32,000 nt of DNA from Methanothermobacter thermautotrophicus str. Delta H (GTDB lineage Archaea; Methanobacteriota; Methanobacteria; Methanobacteriales; Methanothermobacteraceae): NCBI RefSeq assembly GCF_000008645.1, contig NC_000916.1, forward strand, positions 30,001 through 62,000, in the 5' to 3' direction. The stretch's first letter is position 1. Each line of letters begins with the position of its first letter. The notes under the pieces are model-generated. The model ran no database searches. It was not told the DNA's origin and saw nothing but the letters and a program-made list of their open reading frames with translations. The translations under genes and the position numbers were made by a program. Positions 12,236 through 31,754 of the stretch are shown piece after piece.

Positions 12236-12345
12236 CTCTCAACTTCTTTTTCATGTAATCGTTGGGTCCTAGTATGCAAGTTTTTATCGTCTCATGATTC
12301 TGATAGGCATCCTATGCTTGCAGCGGAACCTATTATGGGTTGATT
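12236..12345 (-). pseudogene. Decayed 3' end of a type-2 (..NYLEKKLREAGG) C-terminal module
   Basis: ~110 nt resemble 22566-22680 and 14439-14550 by eye (agcctctctcaacttctttt..cctagtatgca..) but carry many substitutions and no open frame. Confidence 0.4.
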
Positions 12346-12384
12346 CTTTATTTATCTGTTAGTATAGGTTTACATAAGGTTTTT

Positions 12385-12642: not shown

Positions 12643-12660
12643 TACAACCCCTCTATTTAC

Positions 12661-14438: not shown

Positions 14439-15385
14439 CCTCCAGCCTCTCTCAACTTCTTTTCTAGGTAGTTTTTGAATCCTAGTATGCAGGCTTCTAT
14501 TGTCTCACGATTCTCATAGGCTAATAGGCTTCCAATAGCCATCCCAGTGCCTATTACAGTACCTCCATGTTTTATGGCGCCCACGACATTCCCATCCTTT
14601 AAAGCCTCCTTGAACAGATCCCATTCATCCATCATGAGTTTACCTAAATTATTTATAGCCCTTCCTATATCGTCGGGATCGCCACCAACACCACCACTGC
14701 TAATCACCCTTAGAGTATCTACGGCTTCTCTATACTCATTTATCGCTTGACTCCATTCGTCAGACTGTCTTGATAGTATTTCAAGATAGTTTTGTATTGG
14801 TTGTGTGTCTCCTGTTAGTAGTGTGTAGGCGATGAATGTTGGCAGACCAGCGGGTGAGAGTAACATCATGGCATCTTCGATGTATGGGAGCCACTCAGGA
14901 TGTTCGATGAGGATATAAGCGACTATTGCAACAACTATTCCTATGCCAGCTGTCGCCGGCGCTGACAAGGCTCCTGCTTCGAGGATGGCGACTTCAGCTC
15001 CTCCTTCGAAGCCGACGACTTCAGCTCCTGAAACACCAGCAAATCCAATGAACTTCCACAAACCGGTCTCATTCAGTAGTTCTTTTGCGAGGTTGGCTGC
15101 CCATTCTGTCTGCAGGTGGCTGAAACAATATGCCCCCATAACATTCTTAAAGATATTGACATCCCTCACTATCCCTGTTGCAGTGTCGATGATCAGGTAG
15201 TCATTATCATAGTTTATTATGGTGTAGTTCCCAGCTTTTGTAATATTTAGTTTTTCTCCGTTCAGGAGCCTGTATGCTATGCTTGTGATCGCAGCACCTT
15301 CCATGATATCCCCTATATTGTCGAGGCTTCCATTGTATGGGAATAGGCGTTGCATTGAACTCTGAGGGGTTTGATGTCCCGACAA
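14435..15385 (-). CDS. Type-2 C-terminal module: junction block fused to a different Gly/Ala-rich hydrophobic C-terminus (likely start at ATG 15304)
   Basis: AITSIAYRLLNGEKLNITKAGNYTIINYDNDYLIIDTATGIVRDVNIFKNVMGAYCFSHLQTEWA aligns with the junction block of the 837/840-aa proteins. The rest (..ATAGIGIVVAIVAYILIEHPEWLPYIED..GGTVIGTGMAIGSLLAY..NYLEKKLREAGG) is unrelated to them. The listed start is TTG. ATG 15304 has TAGGGGAT 5 nt upstream. Confidence 0.6.
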   Translation of the reverse strand: MSGHQTPQSSMQRLFPYNGSLDNIGDIMEGAAITSIAYRLLNGEKLNITKAGNYTIINYDNDYLIIDTATGIVRDVNIFKNVMGAYCFSHLQTEWAANLAKELLNETGLWKFIGFAGVSGAEVVGFEGGAEVAILEAGALSAPATAGIGIVVAIVAYILIEHPEWLPYIEDAMMLLSPAGLPTFIAYTLLTGDTQPIQNYLEILSRQSDEWSQAINEYREAVDTLRVISSGGVGGDPDDIGRAINNLGKLMMDEWDLFKEALKDGNVVGAIKHGGTVIGTGMAIGSLLAYENRETIEACILGFKNYLEKKLREAGG

Positions 15386-15401
15386 TAATTAAATAGCCCT
15401 G

Positions 15402-15677
15402 TTATACCCCTGGAGATGCAATTAAACCCACTATAAGGAGCATTACCATCATCCATCTTATTTCATACTCTTTTTCCTTCAACTCGTAGTAGAGCCAGCA
15501 TAAAAGGAGAAGAGTGAACAAGCCTAAAGGGGCTGCTATTAGGGACAAAACATCACAATGATACTTAAGCGCAAGAATACATAGGAACATAACTATGCAG
15601 ATAAGAGGATAAGCCCTCTTATACCAAGATTCATAATCCAATAAGATCCCCTCCACTTTAGATATATACTGCTTCAT
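15402..15677 (-). CDS. Small membrane ORF, family 1 (DYES..EIRWM), putative immunity-like partner of large protein A (probable TTG start at 15641)
   Basis: 2-3 TM helices. GGAGGGG at 15648-15654 and TTG at 15641 reproduce the RBS/TTG arrangement of paralogues 20180..20425 and 23298..23534. It lies 16 nt after the protein A stop. Confidence 0.6.
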   Translation of the reverse strand: MKQYISKVEGILLDYESWYKRAYPLICIVMFLCILALKYHCDVLSLIAAPLGLFTLLLLCWLYYELKEKEYEIRWMMVMLLIVGLIASPGV

Positions 15678-18171: not shown

Positions 18172-18222
18172 TATAGTATAAAAAGATTACTATCTCTTTT
18201 AGGGGCGAAAAATATAAAAGGT
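18172..18222 (-). promoter_or_regulatory. Conserved promoter region of protein A (two TATA-like elements)
   Basis: The minus strand reads cTTTTATATTTTTcg..cTTTTTATACTATA directly upstream of the ATGs. The same ~50 nt recur at 26673-26724 upstream of protein B, and similarity stops beyond them. Confidence 0.4.
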
Positions 18223-18604
18223 GGGATTTAAGACAAGAGCATGAATCCCATCATTACAAGCTTAAACAGGAAAAAATAGGCACTTACCATCCCCCCCAGA
18301 TGGGCAAAGAGAAACCTTATATTGCTGTCATAAAATGATTCTTGTTTACATAATGATTCTTGAGGAGTTTATTTTGTCATGCTTGAAAATAAAATATGTG
18401 GAGGCCGAGAAGAAAACTTTGATAGTCGCTTTTTTGGGAACCTGATATCCCCTTTTGGGTTTGTGTAGTGTGGTGTTTGATCCATTTTTAGGTTATTCTG
18501 GGAGGGGGGGATGAGATTGGAGGCTGCTATTTGGAGGCTAGAAATGTCCTGAGCCTCTTTATTTTGGTATTGGCTTGTTGGTTTGTTGTTGGGTTTAACG
18601 CTCC

Positions 18605-18883
18605 TCAATGATATAGCCGAGAAAGGAGAAGTACACCTACTAGGAGCATTATAACAAAAAGTGTTTCGATCACACCTTTTTCCTCGCCTCTGAACACCTT
18701 CTTCGACAGAAAATAGATTAGCAAAAACATATTTCCCAGTAAAAGACACGTTAACAATATAATAGGTAGTTCAGGCCTAGTAGGCAGTAAAGCCAACTTA
18801 CTACCCGTAAACAGTAAAACCAACAAAATTGTAAAACACGATAACGACCCCAAAAACTGAAAAAGCTTAGATGTATGCTGCAT
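18605..18883 (-). CDS. Small membrane ORF, family 2 (putative immunity-like partner of cassette E1)
   Basis: 92 aa. It shares RPELPIILLTCLLLGNMFLLIYFLSKKVFRGEEKGV with 10384..10662. Its ATG is embedded in the cassette's last codons. Confidence 0.6.
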   Translation of the reverse strand: MQHTSKLFQFLGSLSCFTILLVLLFTGSKLALLPTRPELPIILLTCLLLGNMFLLIYFLSKKVFRGEEKGVIETLFVIMLLVGVLLLSRLYH

Positions 18884-19274
18884 CCTCCCACCTCAAACTA
18901 CCATCAGGATTCTTCGGTATTTCAATATAGTGTATACAATGATCCTCACCAACATAACTTCTCAACTCATAACCATAAATCCAGGTACGATGAATCGAAA
19001 TATACTTCCAATATTCTTGGGGAAGATAATGAGTCCGTATCCTTAAAATCAAATCACCTTCAGCCACTATCACACTTATAAAACCCAAAGGACCCATAAC
19101 AGCAGTGACACCGGCAACAGTTGCAATATCTAATATACCATGGAAAACATCCTCTAGAATGCATGTTTGGTGTTCTATGATGAATTTTTTGATATCGTCT
19201 GTGATGTTTAGGAGGCCTGTGTAGGCTATTATTGTTGCATATGCTGCCATGTTGAGTCCTATAAATCCCTCCAC
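18867..19274 (-). CDS. Orphan C-terminal cassette E1 (5'-truncated; no ATG, listed start is GTG inside ..LVEGFIG..)
   Basis: ..EGFIGLNMAAYATIIAYTGLLNITDDIKKFIIEHQTCILEDVFHGILDIATVAGVTAVMGPLGFISVIVAEGDLILRIRTHYLPQEYWKY..GEDHCIHYIEIPKNPDGSLRWEDAAYI. Homology to the full-length genes begins only at ~19295. Confidence 0.7.
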   Translation of the reverse strand: MEGFIGLNMAAYATIIAYTGLLNITDDIKKFIIEHQTCILEDVFHGILDIATVAGVTAVMGPLGFISVIVAEGDLILRIRTHYLPQEYWKYISIHRTWIYGYELRSYVGEDHCIHYIEIPKNPDGSLRWEDAAYI

Positions 19275-19404
19275 AAGAGCATAATTGAGGATATCCTGGA
19301 ATGTAAATCCACATAGACTTCAACATTATCATGAGTTGTGATATTTTTTATAGGTTTTTTCTAAGATTTTCCAGTTTTTTTGGGCGTGGGGGGCTGCTTT
19401 TCTT

Positions 19405-19647
19405 TTATGCAAGGCCAAAGAAGCCTATAATTACAAGCAAGCCTCCAAGTGCTCTGACAGTTTCATTTTCAGTTTTTCCCAACTCATCCTTGCCTAATAG
19501 GTAAATTAAGAGAAACATGTTCACTATGTAAATGGAATAGACAATTAATTTGCTGATAATATAGGGGAAACGGAGACTAACCACAACCAATGCAGCAGTA
19601 AAATAAGAAAGGAAATAACTAAAATAAAAAATGTACTTTACCATCAT
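19405..19647 (-). CDS. Small membrane ORF, distant family 2 (putative immunity-like partner of cassette D)
   Basis: 80 aa, 3 hydrophobic helices. It shares NMFLLIYLLGK with family 2. RBS AGGAGGA lies in the 13-nt gap after the cassette D stop. Confidence 0.55.
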   Translation of the reverse strand: MMVKYIFYFSYFLSYFTAALVVVSLRFPYIISKLIVYSIYIVNMFLLIYLLGKDELGKTENETVRALGGLLVIIGFFGLA

Positions 19648-19660
19648 ATCATCCTCCTAA

Positions 19661-20164
19661 TCAGATATACACTGCTTCATCCCATCTTAAAGTACCATCT
19701 GGGTTCTTTGGGATTTCAATGTAGTGTATGCAATGGTCTTCGCCAACATAAATTTTAAGTTCATAACCATGCCGCCAAGTTCTATGGTAAGAAACATATT
19801 TCCAATATTCAGTTGGAAGATAATTCGTTCTTACATTCACAATTAAATCACCTTCTGCTAATAGTAGAGAAGCAATCGAAAAAATACCACTTGCCAAGGT
19901 GACACCTTCACTACTAAGCTCTTTTAAACTCCATATAAAAAGAATCCCATCTATAATGTCCCCTCCAATGCATGTTTGGTGTTCTATGATGAATTTTTTG
20001 ATATCGTCTGTGATGTTTAGGAGGCCTGTGTAGGCTATTATTGTTGCATATGCTGCCATGTTGAGTCCTATGAGGCTGGCCCTACATAATCGAAAAAGAG
20101 GGTTTAGGATGGAAAGGTACATGGAGGTTACAAAGCCCAATATAAGCCTTCTTAGTACTATCAT
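19661..20164 (-). CDS. Orphan C-terminal cassette D (5'-truncated; the first ~10 listed residues are an out-of-frame artefact)
   Basis: The core GGDIIDGILFIWSLKELSSEGVTLASGIFSIASLLLAEGDLIVNVRTNYLPTEYWKY is unique. The end module is conserved. DNA homology (..LDGNSTVNLEGLDDSTKKAYIG) starts at ~20200, overlapping the preceding ORF's 3' end. It has the same extra-T frameshift as E2. Confidence 0.7.
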   Translation of the reverse strand: MIVLRRLILGFVTSMYLSILNPLFRLCRASLIGLNMAAYATIIAYTGLLNITDDIKKFIIEHQTCIGGDIIDGILFIWSLKELSSEGVTLASGIFSIASLLLAEGDLIVNVRTNYLPTEYWKYVSYHRTWRHGYELKIYVGEDHCIHYIEIPKNPDGTLRWDEAVYI

Positions 20165-20179
20165 CTAAACCTTCAAGGT

Positions 20180-20425
20180 TTACAGTGCTGTTGCCATCCA
20201 GGAAAAGGACGAGCCTACTACAAAGGTTATGGCCATTAACCATCGTATTTCATCCTCTCTTTCCTTCAATTTGAATTGGAGCCAGAATAGAAGAGAAAAA
20301 ATGAACAAGCCTAAAAGGTCTGCTATTGGAATCAAACCATTAAAATGTTTAATTCCAATGGAAAATAAAATAATATCGAGACAAAGAAGGGAATAAAGTA
20401 TATCGAGCAAAGATTCATAATCCAA
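20180..20425 (-). CDS. Small membrane ORF, family 1 (TTG start, RBS AGGAGGTG at 20433-20440)
   Basis: 81 aa. DYESLLD..EDEIRWLM is paralogous to 15402..15677 and 23298..23534. A decayed cassette-end remnant (~20446-20485) lies directly upstream. Confidence 0.6.
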   Translation of the reverse strand: MDYESLLDILYSLLCLDIILFSIGIKHFNGLIPIADLLGLFIFSLLFWLQFKLKEREDEIRWLMAITFVVGSSFSWMATAL

Positions 20426-20464
20426 GAAAAGACACCTCCTATATCATCCACTTAGACTACCCCA

Positions 20465-20554
20465 TTAGGGTTCGTTTGAGAATTTTAGCCCCATATAGTT
20501 GCCGCGGATCGTAAAATACGCCAAAAACTGAAAAAGCTTAGATGTATACTGCAT
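20465..20554 (-). pseudogene. Truncated family-2 membrane ORF remnant after cassette C
   Basis: MQYTSKLFQFL.. starts inside the last codons of cassette C exactly as in E1/E2, then diverges and stops after 29 codons. Confidence 0.45.
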
Positions 20555-21182
20555 CCTCCCACCTCAAACTACCATCAGGATTCTTCGGTATTTCAATATA
20601 GTGTATACAATGATCCTCACCAACATAACTTCTCAACTCATAACCATAAATCCAGGTACGATGAATCGAAATATACTTCCAATATTCTTGGGGAAGATAA
20701 TGATCTCTAAATGTAAGTATGCCATCACCTATCCGCATACACCATCCAATTGGTTGAAATATTTCACCACCATACCTTACTAACACATATGCCAAAACCT
20801 GGATCAAACAGTGAGCAGTATCTTCTGAGATGTATGTTTGGTGTTCTATGATGAATTTTTTGATATCGTCTGTGATGTTTAGGAGGCTTGTGTAGGCTAT
20901 TATTGTTGCATATGCTGCCATGTTGAGTCCTATAAATCCCTCCACAAGAGCATAATTGAGGATATCAACGAAAGCCATTGGACCTTCCAGGGCAATGTAC
21001 ATGGAGATTACAAGGCCAATATAAGCCTTCTTGATACTATCATCTAAACCTTCAAGGTTTACTGTGCCATTACCATCCAAGAGCGAATCTAACTTTTCAG
21101 ATATTATGGCTTGGCCAAGTTCCCGAGCCCATTCTGTCTGTTGGTGGTAGTAGCAGTATGCTCCCATGAAAGCATAGATCAT
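20538..21182 (-). CDS. Orphan C-terminal cassette C (homology extends 5' to ~21335; no N-terminal domains)
   Basis: The in-frame upstream extension reads TTGIGLTLLNGGSLNILESENYTLISDGQGRYLIIDHATGIVRD-MIYAFMG... The unique core is SEDTAHCLIQVLAYVLVRYGGEIFQPIGWCMRIGDGILTFRDHYLP. The end module is identical to that of E1/E2. Confidence 0.7.
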   Translation of the reverse strand: MIYAFMGAYCYYHQQTEWARELGQAIISEKLDSLLDGNGTVNLEGLDDSIKKAYIGLVISMYIALEGPMAFVDILNYALVEGFIGLNMAAYATIIAYTSLLNITDDIKKFIIEHQTYISEDTAHCLIQVLAYVLVRYGGEIFQPIGWCMRIGDGILTFRDHYLPQEYWKYISIHRTWIYGYELRSYVGEDHCIHYIEIPKNPDGSLRWEDAVYI

Positions 21183-21425
21183 GTCCCTTACTATCCCTGT
21201 TGCATGGTCTATGATGAGGTATCTTCCCTGCCCGTCACTGATAAGCGTGTAATTCTCGCTTTCGAGGATGTTTAGTGACCCGCCGTTGAGGAGTGTTAGG
21301 CCTATTCCTGTTGTGTGGAGGTTTTGATCCTGGGATTTGGGTTTATGGTTGATTTTTTTTGGATGGTGAGTTCTTTCAGGGCTTTTTTGGCTTTTTTGTA
21401 TTCTGGGTCTATTTTCAGGGCTTTT

Positions 21426-22565
21426 TCATAGCATTTTAGTGCTTCTTTGTGTTTGCCGAGTTTTTGTAGTGTTTTTCCTTGCATGTACCATAGTGTTTTG
21501 TTTTGGGGGGTTTAGTTTGAGGGCTTTCTTGTAGCATTTCAGGGATTCCTCTGGTTTTTTGAGGTCTTCTAGGATTATGCCTTTCCATTTCCATGCATCG
21601 GCGAATTCGGGGTTTATTTCAAGGGCTTTTTGAAAGCATTCCAGCGCATCCTTATATTTTCCAAGTTCTTCGAGGACTAGTCCTTTGTTGTTCCATGTTT
21701 TGTCGTCTTCTGGATCTATTTCCAGGGCTTTTTCATAGCATTCTAGTGCCTCCTCATATCTCCCAAGTTCACTGAGGACTACTCCTTTGTTGTTCCATGC
21801 TTCTGCAAGTTTGGGGTTTATCTGTAATGCTTTTTCATAGCATTCTAGTGACTCATCATATCTCCCAAGTTCATTGAAAACTAGTCCTTTGTTGTTCCAA
21901 GCTTTATCATCTTGTGGATTTAATTGGAGAACTTTGTCATAACATTTTAATGCTTCTTCATATATCTTAAGGTTATGTAATGTTATTCCTTTAGTTCCCC
22001 AAGCTCTATAATTTTTTGGATTTAGCTCTATGGCTTTTTCGAAACATTTTAGTGCCTTTTTGTATTTTTTAAGGTAAATTAGAACGGAGCCTTTATTGTA
22101 CCATGCATCTGCAAGTTTGGGGTTTATCTGTAATGCTTTTTCATAGCATTCTAGTGCCTCATCATATCTCCCAAGTTCTTTGAGGACTAGTGCTTTATTG
22201 TTCCATGCTCCTGCATACTTTGGATTTATTTTTAGTGCTTTTTCATAGCATTCTAGTGCCTCATCATATCTCCCAAGTTCTTTGAGGACTAGTCCTTTGT
22301 TGTTCCATGCTTCTGCAAGTTTTGGATTGTTTTTGAGGATTTTTTCATAGCATTCTAAGGCTTTCTCTGGTCTTTTGAGTTTTAGTAGTGTTATTGCATT
22401 GTAGTGGAGGATTTCTGGGTTGTTTGGTCTTGCTTTGAGGGCTTTCCTGAATTCTTTGAGGGCTTCTTTGTATTTTCCCTGTTTTAGGCTTGATCGGCCC
22501 CCAGCAAGGTGCCATCCAGCCTTTCCCTCGGCTATCCAATCCTTTATTTTCTTAAGGGGGTTCAT
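21426..22565 (-). CDS. TPR repeat protein, frameshifted near its 3' end (last TPR units continue in ORF 21302..21484)
   Basis: 379 aa of TPR units. At the G6 run 21505-21510 the frame slips (..KLNPPKQNTMVH.. instead of ..KLNPQ.KTLWYMQGKTLQKLGKH..). ATGA overlap with 22562..23164. Confidence 0.75.
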   Translation of the reverse strand: MNPLKKIKDWIAEGKAGWHLAGGRSSLKQGKYKEALKEFRKALKARPNNPEILHYNAITLLKLKRPEKALECYEKILKNNPKLAEAWNNKGLVLKELGRYDEALECYEKALKINPKYAGAWNNKALVLKELGRYDEALECYEKALQINPKLADAWYNKGSVLIYLKKYKKALKCFEKAIELNPKNYRAWGTKGITLHNLKIYEEALKCYDKVLQLNPQDDKAWNNKGLVFNELGRYDESLECYEKALQINPKLAEAWNNKGVVLSELGRYEEALECYEKALEIDPEDDKTWNNKGLVLEELGKYKDALECFQKALEINPEFADAWKWKGIILEDLKKPEESLKCYKKALKLNPPKQNTMVHARKNTTKTRQTQRSTKML

Positions 22566-23164
22566 CCTCCAGCCTCTCTCAACTTCTTTTCTAGGTAGTT
22601 TTTGAATCCTAGTATGCAGGCTTCTATTGCTTCACGATTCTCATAGGCCAATAGGCTTCCAATAGCCATCCCAGTGCCTATTATAGTGCCTCCATGTTTT
22701 ATGGCGCCCACAACATCCCCATCCTTTAAAGCCTCCTTGAACAGATCCCATTCATCCATCATGAGTTTACCTAAATTATTTATAGCCCTTCCTATATCAT
22801 CAGGGTCTGGGGATGATGGGACATTCACTTGAGGAAGCTCCCCCCAATTTGTAATTCTTTTCTTCCATTCCTTGTCAGGTATTATTTTTGCTAATTCTTG
22901 TATTGGTTGTGTGTCTCCTGTTAGTAGTGTGTAGGTGATGAATGTTGGCAAACCACCAGGTGAAAGTAGCATGCTCATCATCATAGCATCTTCGATGTAT
23001 GGTAGCCATTCAGGATGCTCCATGATAATAATTAGAGCCAGGGTAATAACCAAGCCTAAACCTAGTGTTTCTGGGGCTGAAAGCACACCCAATTCAAGTG
23101 CAGCTGCTTCGGCTGTTGAAACACCAGCAACACCAATAAATTTCCACCAACCACTCCAATTCAA
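22562..23164 (-). CDS. Type-2 C-terminal module, 5'-truncated and frameshifted copy
   Basis: Homologous, with several substitutions and small indels, to the C-terminal ~200 aa of 14435..15385 (..IEHPEWLPYIEDAMM..NYLEKKLREAGG). Upstream, MGAYY(fs)HQQTELAKKLGNEILNWSGWWKF shows a 1-nt deletion, and homology ends at ~23225. Confidence 0.6.
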   Translation of the reverse strand: MNWSGWWKFIGVAGVSTAEAAALELGVLSAPETLGLGLVITLALIIIMEHPEWLPYIEDAMMMSMLLSPGGLPTFITYTLLTGDTQPIQELAKIIPDKEWKKRITNWGELPQVNVPSSPDPDDIGRAINNLGKLMMDEWDLFKEALKDGDVVGAIKHGGTIIGTGMAIGSLLAYENREAIEACILGFKNYLEKKLREAGG

Positions 23165-23297
23165 AATTTCATTCCCAAGTTTTTTGGCTAGTTCTGTTTG
23201 TTGGTGTAGTATGCTCCCATAATATTCCTGTTTTATGTCTATTAAATGAAAAAAACCTTAACATCCCCCTTCATCTTGGCAACATGATAACTCCTCT

Positions 23298-23534
23298 TTA
23301 TGTTCCGAATATAATTAATGCAAGGATTATGGCAATCATCCATCTTATTTCTTCTTTTTTTCCCTTCAACTCATCCACGAAGAAGTGCAACCAGAATAAA
23401 AGGAAATAAATAAACACGGTTAAAAGGGCCGCTATTGGAACCAAACCATTAAAATGCCTAATCCCAACAAAATATAAAATAATATCAACACAAATAAGAA
23501 AATAAACCTTCCCAAACAAAGATTCATAATCCAA
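23298..23534 (-). CDS. Small membrane ORF, family 1 (TTG start)
   Basis: 78 aa. DYESLFG..KEEIRWMIAI. It lies 15 nt after the stub stop at 23550-23552. Confidence 0.55.
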   Translation of the reverse strand: MDYESLFGKVYFLICVDIILYFVGIRHFNGLVPIAALLTVFIYFLLFWLHFFVDELKGKKEEIRWMIAIILALIIFGT

Positions 23535-23549
23535 AAAAGACCCTTCTCA

Positions 23550-23640
23550 CTAACAATATACTGCTTCATCCCACCGTAGAGTACCATCAGGGTTCTTCGG
23601 CATTCCATGTTGTATGCAATGGGATCCTTCATACTGAAGT
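23550..23640 (-). pseudogene. Stub of a cassette 3' end (last ~28 codons only)
   Basis: It reads YEGSHCIQHGMPKNPDGTLRWDEAVYC*, compared with YVGEDHCIHYIEIPKNPDGTLRWDEAVYI*. It abuts the stop of 23629..24045. Confidence 0.6.
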
Positions 23641-24045
23641 ATTGGATTCTTTGATTAAAAGGGTTGCGACTATCAGAGCAAAAATACCTATTAATATTCT
23701 GTCTAAGATTATCATTGTTAAAGCAAAGATGTATGCTAGTATTATGGAGGATTTGGCTAACCATTCCATCTTAAGTTTCCCTATCTTATTTAAGAAGATG
23801 AAAGAGATTATGAGGAATGTGAAAGCCCCCACATCCCCCCCAAGGAAAAAAGATCCAATGGCAAGCAACACACCACCTATAACCCCATATAAGAGAAAAT
23901 CCAACCTCTTTTCCCGTTCTCCTAAACCTCCTAATATCAGTAATATACAACCTATAAATACTAACATAAAAAGTATACAGCCTATGATTATTCTTAAACC
24001 TAACATAGAACCACCCATCCTTTTTCTCCAATCACCCCACCACAA
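23629..24045 (-). CDS. Multi-TM small protein downstream of protein B (candidate immunity-like ORF; likely start at ATG 24018)
   Basis: 4 hydrophobic helices with Gly-rich loops and no paralogue in the window. It is ~130 nt from the protein B stop, so less tightly coupled than the other pairs. Confidence 0.45.
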   Translation of the reverse strand: MWWGDWRKRMGGSMLGLRIIIGCILFMLVFIGCILLILGGLGEREKRLDFLLYGVIGGVLLAIGSFFLGGDVGAFTFLIISFIFLNKIGKLKMEWLAKSSIILAYIFALTMIILDRILIGIFALIVATLLIKESNTSV

Positions 24046-24149
24046 ATCACCTCAAAGCCAAAACCAAACACAACTTAGTAGATCTGCCACTGAAACCAAC
24101 ACCTAGATAATCAGCACATAAAGCTTATCAATCCAAACAAACCACCACC

Positions 24150-26672
24150 TTAAATATATACTGCTTCATCCCACCGTAGAGTACCATCAGGGTCCTTCGG
24201 TATTTCAATATAGTGTATACAATGATCCTCACCAACATAAGCCCTAAGCTCATAACCATGAGCCCATGTACGATGATATGCAATATATTTCCAATATTCC
24301 TCTGGGAGATAATGATCCCTAAAATCGAGTATCCCATTGCCTATAGCCATACACAAACCAACTGGCTGAAGTATTACCCCACCACCAGATTTCGATAATA
24401 CATATATTACTGCTGGAAGCATATATTCAACAAAATCATTTGAAATGTATGTTTGATGTTCCACGATAAATTCTTTGATGCTGCCTGTAATGTTGTTGAG
24501 TTTGGAGTTTATGTAGGCTATTGTTGTTGCGTATGCTGCTATGTTAACTCCTATGAGGCCCTGACCCACCAAGCCATAACTGATGATTTCAACAAAGGTC
24601 ATGGGGTTATGTAGGGCGAGTCGCATTGAAACTATAAGACCCATGAAGGCTTTTCCCACACTATCCCTTAAACCTTCAAGATTTACTGTGCCATTACCAT
24701 CCAAGAGTGACTTTAACCTTTCAGAGGACATTATGGTTCGGCCAAGTTCTTGGGCCCATTCTGTTTGTTGGTGGTAGTAGCAGTATGCTCCCATGAAAGC
24801 ATAGATCATGTCCCTTACTATCCCTGTTGCATGGTCTATGATGAGGTATCTTCCCTGCCCGTCACTGATAAGCGTGTAATTCCCGCTTTCGAGGATGTTT
24901 AGTGACCCGCCGTTGAGGAGTGTTAGGCCTATTCCTGTTGTGGGCGCGCTTGTGGGGTCTGATCCTGGGAAGAGGGCCTCCATCACATAGTATTCTATTG
25001 GATTTATAGCTGATGTTCTCGCATAATTGAATGCTTTAATGTTTTCGGGTGTGCCTTCTGCTTTCACGGCCATGTTGTGGTTGCATTCGAGGCTTATCCA
25101 TGTCCCTGGGCTGTGGTCTCCTGCTGAGACCATCACTGGCATGGTCCTGGTCCATGTTACATTATAGCGCGTGGCTGCTTCTTCTGCGATGAGATCGTGG
25201 AGGTATATTACTTCAAGGCCTGTTAGGAATGTTCCGTGGGCTGCCTTTAATGGTCCGGGCTCGTATGTCCTGTTTAGCCACTTTTGTAATGTCTGGTTTG
25301 TTATCTTCCCTGTGGCGAGGGTGTAGGTTATGATGGCGTCGTAGTTGCTAGCCTCCCAGATGAGAGTGTCGTTTATTATGATATTGGGTCCTGTTTCTCC
25401 TGGTGGGTGTATGTATTGGCCGTTTGTGTAGAGTAGGAGGAGTGTTCTTGTTGATTTGTTCCCTGGGAATGTTATATTGGCTATTGTCACCTTTTCCTCG
25501 CCGGGATACTCCACACTGACCTGTAAAGGGTCTATGCACTTGTTATAGTTTGTGAGTATGAATATCTTTTCTGCCTGGGTTAAATTGAAGTTGTTGAGAT
25601 ATTCATTCACTTGAGGTTCTGCTCCGAGTTTTGTGTAAATTTCTATGAGTCTGTTCAGGCCAGCTATGACTTGCCAGACTATTTCTCTTTGACTCTGGCT
25701 GTTAGCCTGGTAGAATGGGTTAGTGACCTCGGCTAGTTTGTATGCTATGCCATCCTCCACAAGGAATATTGTTTCATTGAATAGGCCCGAAGATATAGCC
25801 CCTATACTAATCCATTTAACCGTGTCATTGAGCGGAATTTTAAATGTTAAATTTAGGGGCTTCCCAGAGGATGTTGCCGTGGAATTAACATGGACCGTTG
25901 CAAGCATAACCTCCAATGTAATAGTCTTCGTGTCTGTTATGCCATAGCCTTGGACTGTTAGGGTTACTTTGTAGGTTCCTGGTTTGTAGGCGTGTACTGG
26001 ATTCTTCTGGGTGCTTGTGCTTTGGTCTCCGAAGTCCCATTTGTAGTATTGTATTGTCCCTGTACTTTTATCCTGGAATTGGACATTATAGCCTTGTATT
26101 GTGTAGGTGTAGTCTGCCCTTGGCCTTACTATAATTCCACCCTTACCTGTAACATATTCTACTGTTACATAGTTTGGTAGTCTTCCTGTGCTGTTGTAGA
26201 AGTTTATTATCCTTGCATTGGCATATATTAGGCTTTCTGGGCGGACTTGTCCAATGGCTGTGCTGGCATAATTCGGCGACCTCCCATAGGATTCCATGAA
26301 AGCCTTAACATTCTTTGCCACCTGCAAGTATCCTGCTTTTTGGAGTGTTCCTGTTCCTGTTCCACTTGGACTGGGCGGGGAGGCCATACTATTGAATGAC
26401 AAGCCAACTCTCCTACCCTGATCGAGGTTTATGATGGTTGAGGATGAGGCGTAGAGGTAGTCGTCTGCCGACACATTCTTACCGTTAATCACAACCTGTG
26501 ATGGTATTTTTTCATGTTGTGCAGTGTAGTTTCCGATCAGCTTTGAAACGTCACAAATCTCATCATAGGATAAACTCACAGCTGAAGAACTGCCCAAAAG
26601 ACAGAAACAAGAGAGGATTGCCAGAAGAAACAATAACCTCCTCACAGCCACCACCATAATATGATAACACAT
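24150..26672 (-). CDS. Large secreted protein B: same N-terminal 640 aa as protein A, different C-terminal core (polymorphic-toxin-like)
   Basis: 840-aa ORF. From ..TEWA it diverges: QELGRTIMSSERLKSLL..SNDFVEYMLPAVIYVLSKSGGGVILQPVGLCMAIGNGILDFRDHYLPEEYWKYIAYHRTWAHGYELRAYVGEDHCIHYIEIPKDPDGTLRWDEAVYI. Confidence 0.7.
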   Translation of the reverse strand: MCYHIMVVAVRRLLFLLAILSCFCLLGSSSAVSLSYDEICDVSKLIGNYTAQHEKIPSQVVINGKNVSADDYLYASSSTIINLDQGRRVGLSFNSMASPPSPSGTGTGTLQKAGYLQVAKNVKAFMESYGRSPNYASTAIGQVRPESLIYANARIINFYNSTGRLPNYVTVEYVTGKGGIIVRPRADYTYTIQGYNVQFQDKSTGTIQYYKWDFGDQSTSTQKNPVHAYKPGTYKVTLTVQGYGITDTKTITLEVMLATVHVNSTATSSGKPLNLTFKIPLNDTVKWISIGAISSGLFNETIFLVEDGIAYKLAEVTNPFYQANSQSQREIVWQVIAGLNRLIEIYTKLGAEPQVNEYLNNFNLTQAEKIFILTNYNKCIDPLQVSVEYPGEEKVTIANITFPGNKSTRTLLLLYTNGQYIHPPGETGPNIIINDTLIWEASNYDAIITYTLATGKITNQTLQKWLNRTYEPGPLKAAHGTFLTGLEVIYLHDLIAEEAATRYNVTWTRTMPVMVSAGDHSPGTWISLECNHNMAVKAEGTPENIKAFNYARTSAINPIEYYVMEALFPGSDPTSAPTTGIGLTLLNGGSLNILESGNYTLISDGQGRYLIIDHATGIVRDMIYAFMGAYCYYHQQTEWAQELGRTIMSSERLKSLLDGNGTVNLEGLRDSVGKAFMGLIVSMRLALHNPMTFVEIISYGLVGQGLIGVNIAAYATTIAYINSKLNNITGSIKEFIVEHQTYISNDFVEYMLPAVIYVLSKSGGGVILQPVGLCMAIGNGILDFRDHYLPEEYWKYIAYHRTWAHGYELRAYVGEDHCIHYIEIPKDPDGTLRWDEAVYI
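24753..26606. repeat. Long direct repeat, copy 2 (partner 16252-18105)
   Basis: See copy 1. Confidence 0.85.
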
Positions 26673-26724
26673 TATAGTATAAAAAGATTACTATCTCTTT
26701 TAGGGACCGAAAAATATAAATATG
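26673..26724 (-). promoter_or_regulatory. Conserved promoter region of protein B
   Basis: Nearly identical to 18172-18222, with the same TATA-like elements. Confidence 0.4.
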
Positions 26725-27203
26725 AGGATTTTGGGGGTTGTTTTATTTGTAATGTTGCATGATCATGTTCTCCCTTCATTTTTTTCTGGTGTTCCTTAAC
26801 ATAATTGCCTCTGCTAATCTGTACGTTGTTGTTCCATTTTTTTACCTGCAGCCCCTGTAACTGTAATACCGACTCCAGAAACAGCTCACCCCAAGGATTC
26901 CAACCTAAATAGCTTCCAGATCATTAAATACTCCTAAAGCTATAACACCAAAGCCCAGCAGGTTGAAAAAGTGAAATAATTTTTCATATCTAAAAAAATC
27001 AAAGTTTTGATGTTATGAGGTATCATTCCTATAAATAGGCACAACCACTCCAAATTGCTAATATGCCTCTTCAAGTGTGTAGCCCAACCACCAGGCAACC
27101 ATGCAAGCATCAGAAACAAACCTATTATACAACCCCAACTAAAGTGCCGCCAATTACATATTTTCCAACTTTATGCCAAATTAAGTTTATATATGTCAAA
27201 AGT

Positions 27204-27599
27204 TTATTTCCTTCTTTGTTGATCAAATGTAAGTAAAATTAACGCCGCTATAGCCACTACAGTCATAATAGTTCTTAGTGATAATGGCTGTTGGGTTAAT
27301 ACTACTATATAAAAAAATAAAGCCAAAAATATTGTGTAAAACAAGAGTTTTAATCTTCTTCCAGGACTATTATAAATACTTTGAAGTCTGATGTATCCAT
27401 AGAAAGTTAGTATCATTAACATGAACATTAACAATCTTAACTCTAAATATTGGAAAAAATTAAATTCTATGTATAAAAAAATGCCAAAAAATACCACGCA
27501 CAAAAGTAATGTTATTCTTTTTTCATTTTTTTCACTTATCTCAAACATACTTCTTCCACTCCCTAAAATTAAAATAATAATTAGGTATATGTCCACCAT
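27204..27599 (-). CDS. Multi-TM ORF, family 3 (putative immunity-like partner of cassette K2; likely start at ATG 27548)
   Basis: 4 hydrophobic helices. LTFYGYIRL and ALFFYIVVLTQQPLSLRT parallel LSLYGYRT and ALFLYIILVLQPALNTL of 28390..28758. Confidence 0.5.
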   Translation of the reverse strand: MVDIYLIIILILGSGRSMFEISEKNEKRITLLLCVVFFGIFLYIEFNFFQYLELRLLMFMLMILTFYGYIRLQSIYNSPGRRLKLLFYTIFLALFFYIVVLTQQPLSLRTIMTVVAIAALILLTFDQQRRK

Positions 27600-27808
27600 C
27601 CCTCATTAACATGCGCTGTTCCTATAGTACCTAAGTAAGCTGTCCCTAATAAACCAAAAAACTTACCCACTGGATGATCTGTGTAACCTAGCGTCACACA
27701 AACCCAGGCACACCCATAGTAGACTCTCCACCAGTTAAACTCCTTACCATGCCATTTACCCTTCTTCTTCAACCGGTACTTCCAGTTTTTACCAATGATC
27801 TTTTGCAT
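27581..27808 (-). CDS. Leader+cargo cassette K2 (5'-truncated; frame opens only at ..KVLSREEMQKIIGK)
   Basis: MQKIIGK-NWKYRLKKKGKWHGKEFNWWRVYYGCAWVCVTLGYTDHPVGKFFGLLGTAYLGTIGTAHVNEGWWTYT. ~95 nt appear identical by eye to K1 (27729-27816 vs 28928-29015). Confidence 0.55.
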   Translation of the reverse strand: MQKIIGKNWKYRLKKKGKWHGKEFNWWRVYYGCAWVCVTLGYTDHPVGKFFGLLGTAYLGTIGTAHVNEGWWTYT

Positions 27809-27998
27809 TTCCTCTCTGCTTAGGACTTTTTATCTGCTATGTTCGCGATTTGATCTCTATCCGTGCTTATATGGTCTTTTGCCTTTGACGTTCTTGCATC
27901 TCCCCTAATTTTACTGGTCGTTGATTCTATTAGCTTTTGGATCCCCCTCTTTTGTGCTTGTCAATGTAAAGGTCCGATAGGAAATGCTGGTTGGAGGG

Positions 27999-28211
27999 TC
28001 AAGATGCTTTTGGTTTAATCTTCGCGAATAATCCCAGTGTCATCAATATTAGTGTTATGAAGAAGGATCCGAGGCAAAGGCATATTAGCCAGAAGGGGCT
28101 GAGGCCACCTAATAATGTCCCCGCGGGGCCTTTGACCACAAACTCCACCAGATTCATAATACATAATGTTAGGGCCACCACTATCATATTAACATTTTCT
28201 TCCCCTTTCAT
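27999..28211 (-). CDS. Small 2-TM ORF (uncertain)
   Basis: Hydrophobic 62-70-aa ORF on the island's coding strand. It is preferred over the overlapping plus-strand ORF 27991..28365, which has no recognisable features. Confidence 0.3.
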   Translation of the reverse strand: MKGEENVNMIVVALTLCIMNLVEFVVKGPAGTLLGGLSPFWLICLCLGSFFITLILMTLGLFAKIKPKAS

Positions 28212-28389
28212 GCTGAAATGCGCTATAAAATATCCGGTCAGGACAAAATGTCATCCTAATTCACCTTTGAATAGCAAAGTATTCTCCTCTCATAATGTGG
28301 ACTATAAAATATGCCAACCATATCTCCACTCAAACTGTGGGAATAATGTACAGTTATCCCAGTAGATTCCCAATCCTCAATGGGGGGTC

Positions 28390-28758
28390 CTAAGTCTCTT
28401 TGTTTTTAGTGGCGGTTCTTAGGAAAGTTTTCAGTTGAGGCGCGTTGATTAGGAAGAGTGTTGTCAGTAATCCGATGGCTACATACCAGTTTAAGGTGTT
28501 TAATGCTGGTTGAAGTACCAGTATGATGTAGAGGAAGAGTGCTGTGAGGACCGTCTCAACAAAAACTTTAAGCTGCCATTTATTGTGTCGATTTGAAGTT
28601 CTATAACCATAGAGGGAGAGCATGGCAAGCATCATCAGAAAAACCATTAACTCCGAGGCTCCATGGACATCAAACACATAAAGGAATGAAATTACCATAA
28701 AAACCGTGAATATGCCTAAAAAATATCTCAAATCTCTATTCCTCCTTTCATCAGACAT
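28390..28758 (-). CDS. Multi-TM ORF, family 3 (putative immunity-like partner of cassette K1)
   Basis: 122 aa, 4 hydrophobic helices. RBS AGGAGG lies in the 36-nt gap after the K1 stop. Confidence 0.55.
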   Translation of the reverse strand: MSDERRNRDLRYFLGIFTVFMVISFLYVFDVHGASELMVFLMMLAMLSLYGYRTSNRHNKWQLKVFVETVLTALFLYIILVLQPALNTLNWYVAIGLLTTLFLINAPQLKTFLRTATKNKET

Positions 28759-28794: not shown

Positions 28795-29067
28795 TTAATA
28801 CCACCACCCACAATGTGTACGATAATAACGCCCTTCTGAGGGTTCAAACATGAGATAAAGGGCGCCAGCTTTGCCCCATGGGCCACCGTACACTGTCCCC
28901 GCAACAGCAGCCCAGTAATAAACTTTCCACCAGTTAAACTCCTTACCATGCCATTTACCCTTCTTCTTCAACCGGTACTTCCAGTTTTTACCAATGATCT
29001 TTTGCATTTCCTCTGTGCTGAGGGGTTCTATTCGCTGTGTTCTCCGCGGTTTTGTTGTAACATCCAT
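28795..29067 (-). CDS. Leader+cargo cassette K1 (has its own ATG): double-glycine-like leader followed by a cationic Trp/Gly-rich core
   Basis: MDVTTKPRRTQRIEPLSTEEMQKIIGK | NWKYRLKKKGKWHGKEFNWWKVYYWAAVAGTVYGGPWGKAGALYLMFEPSEGRYYRTHCGWWY. The junction DNA cctcagcacagaggaaatgca is shared with the C39 gene. Confidence 0.55.
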   Translation of the reverse strand: MDVTTKPRRTQRIEPLSTEEMQKIIGKNWKYRLKKKGKWHGKEFNWWKVYYWAAVAGTVYGGPWGKAGALYLMFEPSEGRYYRTHCGWWY

Positions 29068-29127: not shown

Positions 29128-29583
29128 TTAATAATGCTTTTGATGGCTTTTCTCAGTCTTTGGATCAGTTACTGGTCTTTTGATGATTAGCACTGTAAAG
29201 ACGATATATGCGGCGGCGGTTACTGTAAGCGCGACGCATGTGGCCCCCACAACATTTTTGTTGATGGGTGTTTTTGTGAGGATGGCATTTGTTAAACCTA
29301 TGAGGTTGAATCCCAGTGTGAACAGCGCGCTGATCAGTAGTGTCCTGGTAAGGCAATGATCATAGCATCCACCAAGACCTTTGATAACCCTATTCAAACC
29401 GGTCATGTACAGTATAACCATGACATCTAAAATGAGGATATAAGCTGCTGAATTAATAGCGTTTCCTGAGACAATATAGAAGAATGGGGCCAGCTCATCC
29501 CCCTGCATCCACCCTGATAAAACTACAGCCGCGCTTATGGCAAAAACCGCCAGCAACGTTAATATAAACATTTTATCTTTCAT
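29128..29583 (-). CDS. 4-TM ORF directly downstream of the C39-cargo gene (putative immunity-like)
   Basis: 151 aa. RBS GAGGAG lies 8 nt upstream of the ATG, in a 36-nt gap after the upstream stop. Confidence 0.55.
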   Translation of the reverse strand: MKDKMFILTLLAVFAISAAVVLSGWMQGDELAPFFYIVSGNAINSAAYILILDVMVILYMTGLNRVIKGLGGCYDHCLTRTLLISALFTLGFNLIGLTNAILTKTPINKNVVGATCVALTVTAAAYIVFTVLIIKRPVTDPKTEKSHQKHY

Positions 29584-29619: not shown

Positions 29620-30189
29620 TTAGTATTCTACATAATGTATACAGTGATCACGCCCCAAGTATGCTTTCACTCTTTTATTTGGCGGGTGATATGCACAGTA
29701 TTTCCAGTACTTTCGCGGCACATACTTATCCCTGACAGTGACTATTATATTACCCAAACCATATAATGTAATAGGAAGCCACCACAACTTGCCTCTAATG
29801 TTCTGCATTTCCTCTGTGCTGAGGATTTTAGCTGAGTCTGTGCCTTGTATTGGCTGATCTGTTGAGATATTCATTGGATTCATTTCATGTTCTGTCTGGT
29901 TGTCTGATGCCGTTCTGTTTTCCATTGCTTCTGTGTTATCACTGCTCTTGATTATGAGGGCGTATCCTGTGTAGATTTCTTGGAATTCTTCCAGTGACAT
30001 TTCTATGTTTCCCATGGTGGGGTCTGCTAGTTTAACGGTTTCATTGTTGACTTCCCTGATGAGGGTGTAGTGTCCCACACCATCACTCATTGTATATGCG
30101 ATCATGTTCTCGTGGAGTTCTGTGATGTTCAGTTTCATGCCTGTCATGTTAACGCCCTTGGCCTTTGCCGCCTCCAGGAGGCCCTGCAT
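29620..30189 (-). CDS. C39-type cysteine peptidase, C-terminal fragment (His/Asp half) + linker + leader-like motif + cargo with the YWKY..DHCIHY end module
   Basis: The frame is open upstream to ~30290 (GINTTEDELADLAGTTEEGTT-MQGLLEAAKAKGVNMTG..). VGHYTLIREVNNETVKLADPTMGNIEMSLEEFQEIYTGYALII follows the C39 His/Asp layout. Next comes ..ILSTEEMQNIRGK-LWWLPITLYGLGNIIVTVRDKYVPRKYWKYCAYHPPNKRVKAYLGRDHCIHYVEY. Confidence 0.75.
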   Translation of the reverse strand: MQGLLEAAKAKGVNMTGMKLNITELHENMIAYTMSDGVGHYTLIREVNNETVKLADPTMGNIEMSLEEFQEIYTGYALIIKSSDNTEAMENRTASDNQTEHEMNPMNISTDQPIQGTDSAKILSTEEMQNIRGKLWWLPITLYGLGNIIVTVRDKYVPRKYWKYCAYHPPNKRVKAYLGRDHCIHYVEY

Positions 30190-30245
30190 TGTTGTACCCT
30201 CTTCTGTGGTGCCGGCGAGGTCTGCGAGTTCATCCTCGGTTGTGT

Positions 30246-30524
30246 TTATTCCAAGGTTTGGAGTAGTGTGGCGAGTGCTGCCGGTCCGCAGGTGTAGTTC
30301 CTGGTCTGCAGGACCACGCCGGTGTTATCTGCTGTGATGTTATCGTCTATAGTGAACTCTGCTGGATCCGTGAAGTTCTCTTCCAAGTTATCTGCTGTGG
30401 ATAAGTCCATGGGATTCGTGGAGTTACTGCTGTTATCCCGTGGGGTTTGTGCGGCCGCAGCAGCGTTAAAAGATACTGCGAGTGTTAAGAGGATCAGCAA
30501 ACCCAAAAGACACGACTTTCTCAT
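30246..30524 (-). CDS. C39-type cysteine peptidase, N-terminal fragment (signal peptide + Gln/Cys half)
   Basis: MRKSCLLGLLILLTLAVSFNAAAAA is a signal peptide. VLQTRNYTCGPAALATLLQTL is the Q..CG.A.L catalytic-Cys motif. It stops at ..QTLE*, where one more G would give ..QTLGINTTEDEL. Confidence 0.75.
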   Translation of the reverse strand: MRKSCLLGLLILLTLAVSFNAAAAAQTPRDNSSNSTNPMDLSTADNLEENFTDPAEFTIDDNITADNTGVVLQTRNYTCGPAALATLLQTLE

Positions 30525-31442: not shown

Positions 31443-31754
31443 TTACCTCGATATCTTTTTGATACAGAAATAGTCAGACACATCACTTTCAGATAATATG
31501 TGCTCCTTCCATACCTCACACCCACTGCAGAGGCACTCTTCATGTGGATCTATATCCCTGCAAATGGCCCTTCCTGTGGAACAGTAGACCCCTGGAACCC
31601 TGTCTGTGTCCATGCGCATGGCGCTGTCAAGGTCCTGCTGGGTTATGAGTAGCATTATCTTCTTCTTATCCCTCACGCACCGACTTTCCCTCTGGACGGG
31701 ACACTCAAGACAGAGGCACCTTCTGATGTTCTCCATGCTGAAGTCAACCTGCAT
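31443..31754 (-). CDS. Cysteine-rich small protein (DUF2769-like, tentative)
   Basis: CLCLECPV and CLCSGCEVW motifs. The upstream in-frame sequence encodes another CSCGKCEVP but has no start codon before it. Confidence 0.4.
   Translation of the reverse strand: MQVDFSMENIRRCLCLECPVQRESRCVRDKKKIMLLITQQDLDSAMRMDTDRVPGVYCSTGRAICRDIDPHEECLCSGCEVWKEHILSESDVSDYFCIKKISR

Follow-up and report, generated by a model that had tools for sequence, protein, structure and literature searches.

The stretch of DNA analyzed here (the window) comprises 32,000 nucleotides of the genome of Methanothermobacter thermautotrophicus str. Delta H (NC_000916.1, positions 30,001 to 62,000; all positions below are those of the window) and is almost identical to the complete M. 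thermautotrophicus-type genomes AP018336.1, CP064337.1, and CP194219.1. Its subject of interest is a 12-residue motif, similar to the double-glycine leaders of bacteriocin precursors, that is found in a gene for a C39-family peptidase (the head gene) and in two gene fragments (the orphan cassettes K1 and K2) and that is followed in each by a different sequence, which we call the cargo. All of the genes concerned are on the minus strand, and their order from 30524 down to 27204 is the C39 head gene, a gene for a 151-residue membrane protein, K1, a gene for a 122-residue membrane protein, a remnant of an immunity gene, K2, and a further gene for a membrane protein. As judged by the comparisons presented below, the Methanobacteriales appear to have a family of secreted, polymorphic peptide toxins whose constant region ends, on the C-terminal side, with the motif, and the same module is present in bacteria of the candidate phyla radiation (CPR).

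The head gene is split into two open reading frames (ORFs). The 5' ORF (30246-30524), whose start codon is preceded by GGTGA with a TATATATA stretch further upstream, encodes a Sec-type signal peptide (MRKSCLLGLLILLTLAVSFNAAAAA), a spacer, and the beginning of a C39 domain with its oxyanion Gln and catalytic Cys (QTRNYTCGPAAL); it ends ...QTRNYTCGPAALATLLQTLE and then a stop codon. The 3' part, in a shifted frame (29620-30258, of which 29620-30189 is the ORF), encodes the rest of the C39 domain with the His and Asp residues, a linker rich in Asn, Thr, and Gln, the motif, and the cargo. The cause of the split is a deletion of one nucleotide in the interval 30255-30261 (near 30258), where the window reads CTCCA-AACCTTGG and an intact relative, in locus L059, reads CTCCAGAAACTTGG; alignment of the two shows that a G has been lost from CCAGAAAC and that there is a substitution nearby. 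(Loci of the genome collection are numbered L001 and so on, and homologous proteins P0001 and so on.) The same lesion is present in six assemblies, three complete genomes among them, and in the more diverged locus L007 of a metagenome-assembled genome, which rules out a sequencing error and indicates that the frameshift is real and fixed in the lineage. Among loci L053-L058, L007, and L059, only one contig, of about 2x coverage, lacks it. The lesion could be that of an old, fixed pseudogene or a site of recoding.

When the two parts are rejoined, the resulting 301-residue protein matches the C39 family PF03412 with an E-value of 1e-33 over profile positions 4-132 of 133 (score 116.5 bits, cutoff 22), and its best matches in NCBIfam are the peptidase domains of bacteriocin ATP-binding cassette (ABC) exporters. 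The catalytic residues are present with the canonical spacing of ComA, the Gln being six residues before the Cys and the His 16 residues before the Asp. A sequence search of the Protein Data Bank (PDB) returned ComA at 2e-15, and the peptidase domains of ComA, PCAT1, and LahT were the closest solved sequences and folds; the first Foldseek matches were likewise PCAT1, ComA, and LahT (target-normalised TM-scores of 0.77-0.86). Rather than being fused to an ABC transporter, the archaeal domain follows a signal peptide or a beta-helix stalk, and no ABC transporter or exporter was found among the genes called in the C39 neighbourhood. The preliminary description of the window had placed the C39 domain and the motif in a single polypeptide. 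This holds for P0001, the intact relative in L059 (99% identical), and for all other full-length homologues, in which Gln, Cys, His, and Asp are in one chain, but not for the window, where the Cys and the His and Asp are in different ORFs. Thus, to judge from its sequence, the C39 domain is a genuine one of the bacteriocin type, but the gene is broken here. A helix within the C39 domain (TTEDELADLAGT, about 30190-30240) also fits a relaxed leader pattern, x-T-x-[DE]-E-L-x-x-L-x-G-T; because PCAT1 has an equivalent helix and GT turn, this helix is probably a generic element of the fold.

The cargo of the head gene (29623-29787) consists of 55 residues, LWWLPITLYGLG...YVPRKYWKYCAYHPP...HCIHYVEY. 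The cargo (YVPRKYWKY...HCIHYVEY) has its homologue in the module (YLPxEYWKY...GEDHCIHYIEIP) at the extreme C-terminus of two large proteins, A and B, which are also encoded in the window (the module being at 15658-15830 and 24150-24320), so that what is evidently the same putative toxin module is borne by two different carriers in one genome. Next is putative immunity gene 1 (29128-29583; strong Shine-Dalgarno sequence GAGGAG), whose 151-residue product has about four transmembrane segments and shares the cluster membership of its cargo type (see below). K1 (28795-29067) consists of 15 unrelated residues, the motif, and a 63-residue cargo, NWKYRLKKKGKWHGKEFNWW...HCGWWY; it is annotated as a 90-residue protein in many genomes and is not preceded by a Shine-Dalgarno sequence comparable to those of the immunity genes. 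It is followed by putative immunity gene 2 (28390-28758; strong Shine-Dalgarno sequence AGGAGGT), for a 122-residue protein, again with about four transmembrane segments, and by a truncated remnant of an immunity gene (28008-28244) of the ...RRVGYRYAA cargo type, beside which no cargo is left (38% identity and E = 4e-13 in tblastn to an immunity protein of L006). In K2 (27581-27829) a stop codon is followed by KV, the motif, and a 68-residue cargo, NWKYRL...NEGWWTYT; K2 has no upstream start codon, and its cargo is fused to an intact C39 domain in P0012 and P0015. The last gene, putative immunity gene 3 (27204-27599), encodes a multi-pass membrane protein orthologous to the product of the gene that follows the K2-type cargo in L001, L006, and L059; its true start is probably the internal MFEISEK, near 27548. 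A Pfam search with K1, K2, and the immunity proteins returned no significant family.

The three copies of the motif are LSTEEMQKIIGK in K1 (28987-29022), LSREEMQKIIGK in K2 (27788-27823), and LSTEEMQNIRGK in the head gene (29788-29823), each with Lys at position -1. The coordinates given for them previously were exact for K1 and acceptable for K2 (about 27788-27826), but those for the head gene (29778-29813) were off by 10 nucleotides and translate to RKCRTLEASCGG. The pattern LS..E[LMIVF]..[ILVM].G. has three matches in the six-frame translation of the window, all at cassette junctions, whereas 300 block shuffles of the window gave 0.07 matches on average and never more than 1. K1 and K2 are 92% identical over 117 nucleotides starting at the Leu codon of the motif (D17, D20), that is, over the motif and about 27 residues beyond it; the head gene has only about 41 nucleotides in common with the two cassettes.

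A homologue search with the rejoined head protein yielded 37 close homologues, all from Methanobacteriales (Methanothermobacter, Methanobacterium, and Methanothermus fervidus) save the three weakest (P0035-P0037), which are metagenome proteins. Their alignment consists of the C39 domain, with invariant catalytic Gln, Cys, His, and Asp, then an indel-rich linker with many Asn, Thr, and Gln residues, then a sharply conserved block, and thereafter unrelated sequences. Within the block the L, E, E, M, I, and G of the motif are each at least 90% conserved or invariant, giving the family motif L(-12)-[ST]-x-[ED]-E(-8)-M(-7)-x-x-[IV](-4)-x-G(-2)-x(-1), in which L-12, E-8, the hydrophobic residues at -7 and -4, and G-2 are those of double-glycine leaders. 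Gly, or in rare cases Ala, is at -2. The motif varies most at -1: across the family this residue is K, R, T, M, E, Q, N, D, L, or S and only occasionally G or A, so that the Gly, Ala, or Ser of a double-glycine leader is not the rule there, although some members have a true GG (for example, LSVDEMKNLVGG). Lys predominates at this position in Methanothermobacter. Nor does the motif belong to a short N-terminal precursor, since in all head genes it is internal, 120-215 residues after the catalytic Cys. The homologues and the loci from the genome collection together contain about 20 unrelated families of cargo, mostly of 30-110 residues and either hydrophobic or with many W, Y, R, K, H, and G residues. 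Homologues in which the motif is lost and the cargo kept had been named beforehand as an outcome damaging to a leader-like role; the reverse was found, the motif being conserved while the cargo varies.

A second set of sequences came from a profile search of 1.84 billion cluster representatives, which gave 120 clusters at E <= 1e-30; among the proteins retrieved, 91 contain the motif of the catalytic Cys and have 25 or more residues of tail. Because a relaxed regular expression for the motif gave false matches, including the C39 helix mentioned above, glutamyl-tRNA synthetase, and a few other unrelated proteins, we scored the tails instead with a position-specific scoring matrix, trained on the first set, against shuffled tails. 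The 99th percentile of the shuffled tails was exceeded by 57 of the 91, and most of the others contain recognisable variants, such as LNINQMKNVTGN and ISNIDQKMISGK, whose distance from the catalytic Cys is fixed. The family includes giant surface proteins of the beta-helix (NosD) or PMBR type that end in the C39 domain, the motif, and a cargo. In Methanobacterium the NosD proteins are 1000-2100 residues long (L009, 2697-9035; L016, 5046-8750; L018, 2-3130; L014, 7956-9152), and -1 is T, E, or M in proteins of this type; the cargo in L014 is a transglutaminase-core domain. CPR bacteria encode a signal peptide, a C39 domain, the sequence [IL]-[ST]-x-x-E-[LA]-x-x-[IMV]-x-G-K, and a cargo. The CPR loci are those of Nomurabacteria (L023, 7707-11302; ISDAELATIWGK), Uhrbacteria (L020, 179-1282; ITDDELSGMTGK), and Microgenomates (L022, 947-2482; LSDEEADQVTGK). 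The Nomurabacteria protein has 1026 residues, and the gene downstream of it encodes Imm26 (PF15428, 1.3e-14). By eye, the C-terminus of the same protein looks like a GIY-YIG domain.

In L001, L003, L005, and L006 the head gene is followed by an array of orphan cassettes. The orphans retain 76-190 residues from the 3' part of the C39 gene, comprising C39 domain and linker, and then have the motif and a new cargo; behind each is a gene for a small membrane protein. When cargos and downstream ORFs were clustered independently, the major clusters had identical membership, which is the signature of cognate toxin-immunity pairs. A constant N-terminal region joined to unrelated C-terminal domains, a downstream putative immunity gene that covaries with the cargo, and displaced orphan cassettes (K1, K2, and the immunity remnant in the window, and the arrays elsewhere) are all features of polymorphic toxins, and by this organisation the family appears to be a polymorphic toxin-immunity system.

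How closely does the motif resemble a double-glycine leader? The junctions gave weak but consistent matches to curated leader models in NCBIfam, with scores of 12.3-14.0 bits with TIGR01847 (cutoff 15.7) and 18.3 bits with NF047798 (cutoff 23.5), and the cassette of P0034 scored 18.4 bits with TIGR03949, the lactobin A/cerein 7B family (cutoff 21.5). The E-values for the leader models, 0.06-0.2, are corrected for 18,950 NCBIfam models; for TIGR01847 taken as a single model specified in advance, E would be about 1e-5, the calibration for such short models being rough. The six families matched by most junctions are all precursor or leader families of bacteriocins or lanthipeptides. The alignments keep the predicted register, the archaeal G-2 being on the first Gly of GG: the matches to TIGR01847 and NF047798 end one position before the end of the model, so that the Gly is on the first Gly and the Lys on the second. 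In the comparison with curated leader profiles that had been proposed, the register was that expected and the scores were below the cutoffs. It had also been held that Met at -7 departs from canonical leaders, which is incorrect, since the leader of pediocin PA-1 reads MKKIEKLTEKEMANIIGG (PMC6036575); that leader (LTEKEMANIIGG) is identical to K1 at 7 of 12 positions.

AlphaFold2 models were made of P0001 and of a homologue with another cargo and 49% identity, P0024 of Methanothermus fervidus. In both, the predicted local distance difference test (pLDDT) score is above 90 in the C39 domain, drops to 33-42 in the linker, rises to 95 and 91, respectively, in the motif block, and is lower again thereafter. 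A short segment between disordered linkers with a pLDDT above 90 suggests a confidently predicted contact with the C39 domain. In both models DSSP assigns a six-residue helix to positions -10 to -5 and an extended or bridge conformation to -3/-2 and -13/-14. This predicted shape, a helix followed by an extended segment, is that of the leader in the crystal structure of the LahT147-leader complex, in which a linear stretch covers -1 to -3, a two-turn helix spans -4 to -11, and V-4, L-7, and L-12 occupy a hydrophobic groove (PMC6363468). Conservation, profile register, and predicted conformation together lend strong support to the proposal of the preliminary description that the motif is an element like a double-glycine leader, that it is functionally coupled to the C39 domain, and that the cargo begins behind it.

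We therefore consider it probable that the motif is the cis site of a releasing peptidase in a polymorphic toxin, that is, both the recognition and the cutting site of the C39 domain in its own chain. An intact member has a Sec signal peptide or a giant beta-helix or PMBR stalk, the C39 domain, a disordered linker, the motif, and the variable cargo, and a small membrane protein specific to the cargo (the putative immunity protein) is encoded just downstream. Such a protein would be exported into anoxic, reducing surroundings, where the motif would fold back and bind the C39 domain of the same chain in the manner of a double-glycine leader, the two-turn helix setting L-12, M-7, and I-4 into the hydrophobic groove and residues -3 to -1 lying extended in the active site. 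The domain would then cut after -1 (after G-K), freeing the cargo as a bacteriocin-like toxin that would act on competitors lacking the matching immunity protein. The architecture, the conservation of the motif, the selection on the peptide (see below), the covariation of cargo and downstream gene, the identity of the C39 domain, and the predicted conformation are what the analysis shows; docking in the active site, the scissile bond, the toxicity, and the action outside the cell are inferred. The Gly at P2 would be the conserved determinant of cleavage, and P1 would be relaxed. In papain-like enzymes the S2 subsite dominates specificity, and a register with the invariant Gly at P2 and a variable P1 fits this rule; the alternative register, with the Gly at P1, would break the hydrophobic pattern at -4, -7, and -12 and would place Lys or Arg at P2. 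The reducing habitat of methanogens allows a cysteine protease to act outside the cell. In StbD-CT, self-cleavage by the C39 domain takes place in cis, after GG, and under reducing conditions only (bioRxiv 10.64898/2026.05.07.723447).

Several points weigh against cleavage in cis. Every match to a leader model is below its curated cutoff, docking in the active site is deduced from pLDDT and DSSP, and the cut after G-K is proposed from sequence and from models. The residue at -1 is Lys or another residue and not Gly, Ala, or Ser; bacterial C39 enzymes reportedly tolerate few changes there, LctT being reported by Furgerson Ihnken and colleagues (2008) to reject most double-glycine variants, and if that holds, Lys at P1 would need an altered S1 site. 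In many members only about 5-10 residues separate the domain from the motif, which may hamper folding back in cis. Finally, the C39 gene is frameshifted in every assembly examined but the one of about 2x coverage, so that unless it is recoded the head gene is inactivated in this genome.

Some of these points would suit a motif that occupies the C39 groove without being cut, as a pseudo-substrate or autoinhibitory tether or as a chaperone for the cargo, with release, if any, by another protease or in trans on contact with the target. Lys and the other bulky residues at -1 are unlike all proven C39 sites, a high pLDDT signifies a confident interaction and not catalysis, and inactive C39-like domains that bind substrate exist, such as that of HlyB (3ZUA), which is among the fold matches. 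Yet a pure binding module would not be expected to keep an invariant catalytic Gln, Cys, His, and Asp, and both the conservation of Gly at P2, as in cleaved leaders, and the canonical GG of some members point to cutting; we consider an uncleaved tether unlikely.

The motif is the last sequence shared before the cargo, and it is therefore also the place at which displaced orphans keep homology to the head gene, which would allow cargos to be swapped by recombination. Could the junction be nothing more than this, a "pre-toxin" spacer of shared DNA for cassette exchange with no role as a peptide? The motif is indeed the last sequence common to the head gene and the orphans, homology within the window begins right at it (D17, D20), and a recombinant exists in which K1 upstream sequence is joined to the K2 cargo (P0040, L059). 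To look at the level on which selection acts, we compared the codons in 19 distinct DNA copies of the motif. At the conserved residues there are five Leu codons at -12, GAA and GAG at -8, ATT, ATC, and ATA at -4, and GGT, GGC, and GGA at -2, and pairs of copies have an average nucleotide identity of 0.70 within the motif, as against 0.44 over the preceding 36 nucleotides and 0.29 downstream. Such free use of synonymous codons indicates selection on the peptide and is unlike a pure DNA recombination signal. Moreover, the orphans in L001, L005, and L006 keep 76-190 upstream residues and so would not need the motif for exchange, the motif is common to archaea and CPR bacteria whose DNA has no detectable similarity, and AlphaFold treats it as a structured element. 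A mere recombination junction is thus improbable.

K1 has its own ATG, a leader of typical length, an annotation as a 90-residue protein in many genomes, and a match to TIGR01847, and it might accordingly be taken for the precursor of a class II bacteriocin in its own right, with a 27-residue N-terminal leader (MDVTTKPRRTQRIEP and the motif) that a C39 protein would process in trans. The resemblance to a short precursor is only superficial, however. K1 lacks a Shine-Dalgarno sequence of the kind that precedes the immunity genes nearby, a start codon is missing from K2, the K1 orthologue of M. tenebrarum (P0039) retains the cargo with the motif frameshifted, and P0040 and L059 have K1 upstream sequence joined to a K2 cargo, evidently by recombination within the shared segment; these features argue that K1 and K2 are silent orphans and not independent bacteriocin genes. 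In addition, K1 has no signal peptide and no ABC exporter among the neighbourhood genes called, the C39 proteins being exported by Sec, and equivalent cassettes elsewhere carry upstream fragments of the C39 domain. All of this makes an independent precursor very improbable. The system in the window appears to be degenerate, with a fixed frameshift in the head gene, silent orphans in K1 and K2, and immunity genes that look expressed, and the frameshifted C39 domain, the orphan state of K1 and K2, and the frameshifted motif of P0039 make processing doubtful here.

An accidental resemblance, or one that any amphipathic helix might have, as the fit of the relaxed pattern to the C39-internal helix and to a few unrelated proteins might suggest, is effectively refuted by the comparative data, namely the conservation of the motif in different genera and domains of life, with a fixed position behind the C39 domain, the three matches in the window against 0.07 expected, and the concentration of weak junction matches on leader and bacteriocin-precursor models instead of a spread over the 18,950 NCBIfam families.

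The known systems closest to the proposed cis site include the double-glycine leaders cut by transporter-borne peptidases of the AMS (ABC transporter maturation and secretion) and PCAT (peptidase-containing ABC transporter) type, such as ComC/ComA, CtA/PCAT1, ProcA/LahT, and PedA/PedD. The peptidase family (PF03412) is the same, with ComA, PCAT1, and LahT as best matches; the same positions (L-12, E-8, hydrophobic -7 and -4, G-2) would be recognised; the predicted bound shape, a two-turn helix and then an extended P3-P1, is the same; and any sequence is likewise tolerated after the site. The differences are that the archaeal peptidase is exported by Sec or ends a surface protein instead of being part of an ABC transporter, that its "leader" is internal and C-terminal to the peptidase in the same chain, that P1 is Lys, Arg, Thr, or another residue as against Gly, Ala, or Ser, that the hosts are archaea and CPR bacteria, and that the scores are below the curated leader cutoffs.

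With polymorphic toxins that contain releasing peptidases (Zhang et al. 2012, PMC3482391; compare the CdiA VENN and Rhs junctions), the family shares a constant N-terminal part and a hypervariable C-terminal putative toxin, an immediately downstream immunity gene, displaced arrays of orphan toxin-immunity modules, and a conserved junction motif with a peptidase just before the toxin. The releasing peptidases listed by Zhang et al. are HINT, ZU5, PrsW, caspase-like, OTU, and PL1, and C39 appears there only as a toxin domain, Tox-PLC39 (PMC3482391); here C39, with its leader-like helix, would be the constant releasing part, and most cargos are short peptides and not enzymes. StbD-CT and Cpe1 (bioRxiv 10.64898/2026.05.07.723447; PDB 8SSK, 8SSM, 9L5U), whose structures are among the Foldseek matches, are C39 domains of polymorphic toxins that cut their own chain in cis, as is proposed here, at a Gly-containing site in a flexible linker, the activity requiring reducing conditions. 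StbD-CT differs in that its GG site is N-terminal to the domain and in that the toxic activity, cleavage of GyrB and ParE, is that of the C39 domain, with StbI as the paired immunity protein. Class II bacteriocins, too, are small cationic peptides that are rich in Trp, Tyr, and Gly or hydrophobic, and they adjoin a gene for a small multi-pass membrane protein; the TIGR03949 match of the P0034 cassette is to one of their families. The archaeal cargos, in contrast, are known from sequence alone, come from precursors of 250-2400 residues as against peptides of 40-70 residues, and would be exported by Sec and not by an ABC transporter.

The releasing peptidases of polymorphic toxins and C39/double-glycine processing are each already known. 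Our literature searches found no published description of a cis fusion of C39 domain, leader, and cargo, an earlier mention in Makarova et al. 2019 (mBio) being possible, and they returned no experiments on the toxicity of a cargo or on protection by its immunity protein. A hypervariable C39 protein with rearranged neighbours has been reported from single-cell genomes of Methanobacterium, the motif and the fusion not being described there (PMC8115248), and the bioRxiv article "Bacteriocins in archaea" does not mention C39. A C39-like glycosidase (PMC13642728) proved to be a different, divergent protein that is linked to PMBR repeats.

If the motif is cut as proposed, C39/double-glycine processing, a cytoplasmic step in which a transporter-coupled enzyme cleaves a separate peptide, would also take place outside the cell as self-cleavage in cis, and P1 could evidently relax while the Gly at P2 and the leader helix stay. 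C39 would join the releasing peptidases of polymorphic toxins, and conflict systems of archaea and CPR bacteria would be linked. We know of no antimicrobial peptide system that has been characterised in methanogens; the family provides dozens of candidate peptide toxins, each with an immunity gene and a predicted precise site of maturation, and these could be leads for agents specific to methanogens, in the rumen for example. A broader proposal, which in our judgment could equally turn out to be right or wrong, is that Methanobacteriales and some CPR bacteria have a transporter-free route to antimicrobial peptides, in which a Sec-exported or surface-borne C39 protein with a built-in leader helix cuts itself after G-x in the anoxic medium outside the cell and sheds a swappable toxin. 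The products would be the first bacteriocin-like "archaeocins" of methanogens, with specificity set by cassette recombination and by matching membrane immunity proteins. As for annotation, many entries for Methanobacteriales that read "C39 family peptidase" or, for short proteins, "hypothetical protein" could be re-read as toxin head genes and orphan cassettes.

We turn finally to other parts of the window. The large proteins A and B, PMBR and PKD surface proteins of 837 and 840 residues (15658-18171 and 24150-26672), have the same sequence up to about residue 640, the point of divergence following HQQTEWA at 634. A weaker, speculative parallel to the leader motif had been drawn at LLNGG (residues 585-589) in these proteins. 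The sequence (TTGIGLTLLNGG followed by SLNIL) is present, but it lacks the L-12 and E-8 of the motif, reads LLNGE in one orphan copy, and precedes the divergence by about 50 residues, so that the parallel is not supported. The 840-residue protein B matched no family in NCBIfam at E <= 1, and hence no leader model. The two proteins belong to what appears to be a second, larger polymorphic island on the minus strand at 9000-27000, with at least six orphan C-terminal cassettes (10646-11134, 14435-15385, 18867-19274, 19661-20164, 20538-21182, and 22562-23164) that are followed by small membrane proteins. Directly downstream of orphan cassettes of the large proteins, at 13227-14438 and 21426-22565 (minus strand), are genes for two proteins of tandem 34-residue (102-nucleotide) TPR-like repeats (D1, D4, D8), which may be immunity or accessory proteins. 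A run of unannotated signal-peptide proteins, some with tails rich in Ser, Gly, and Thr and a C-terminal transmembrane segment, occupies 2752-8500 (minus strand). On the other side, just upstream of the C39 locus, is a gene for a Cys-rich DUF2769 protein (31443-31754, minus strand) that is conserved in all assemblies (L053-L059), and beyond it are DUF2193, DUF2180, MIP, and MFS genes.

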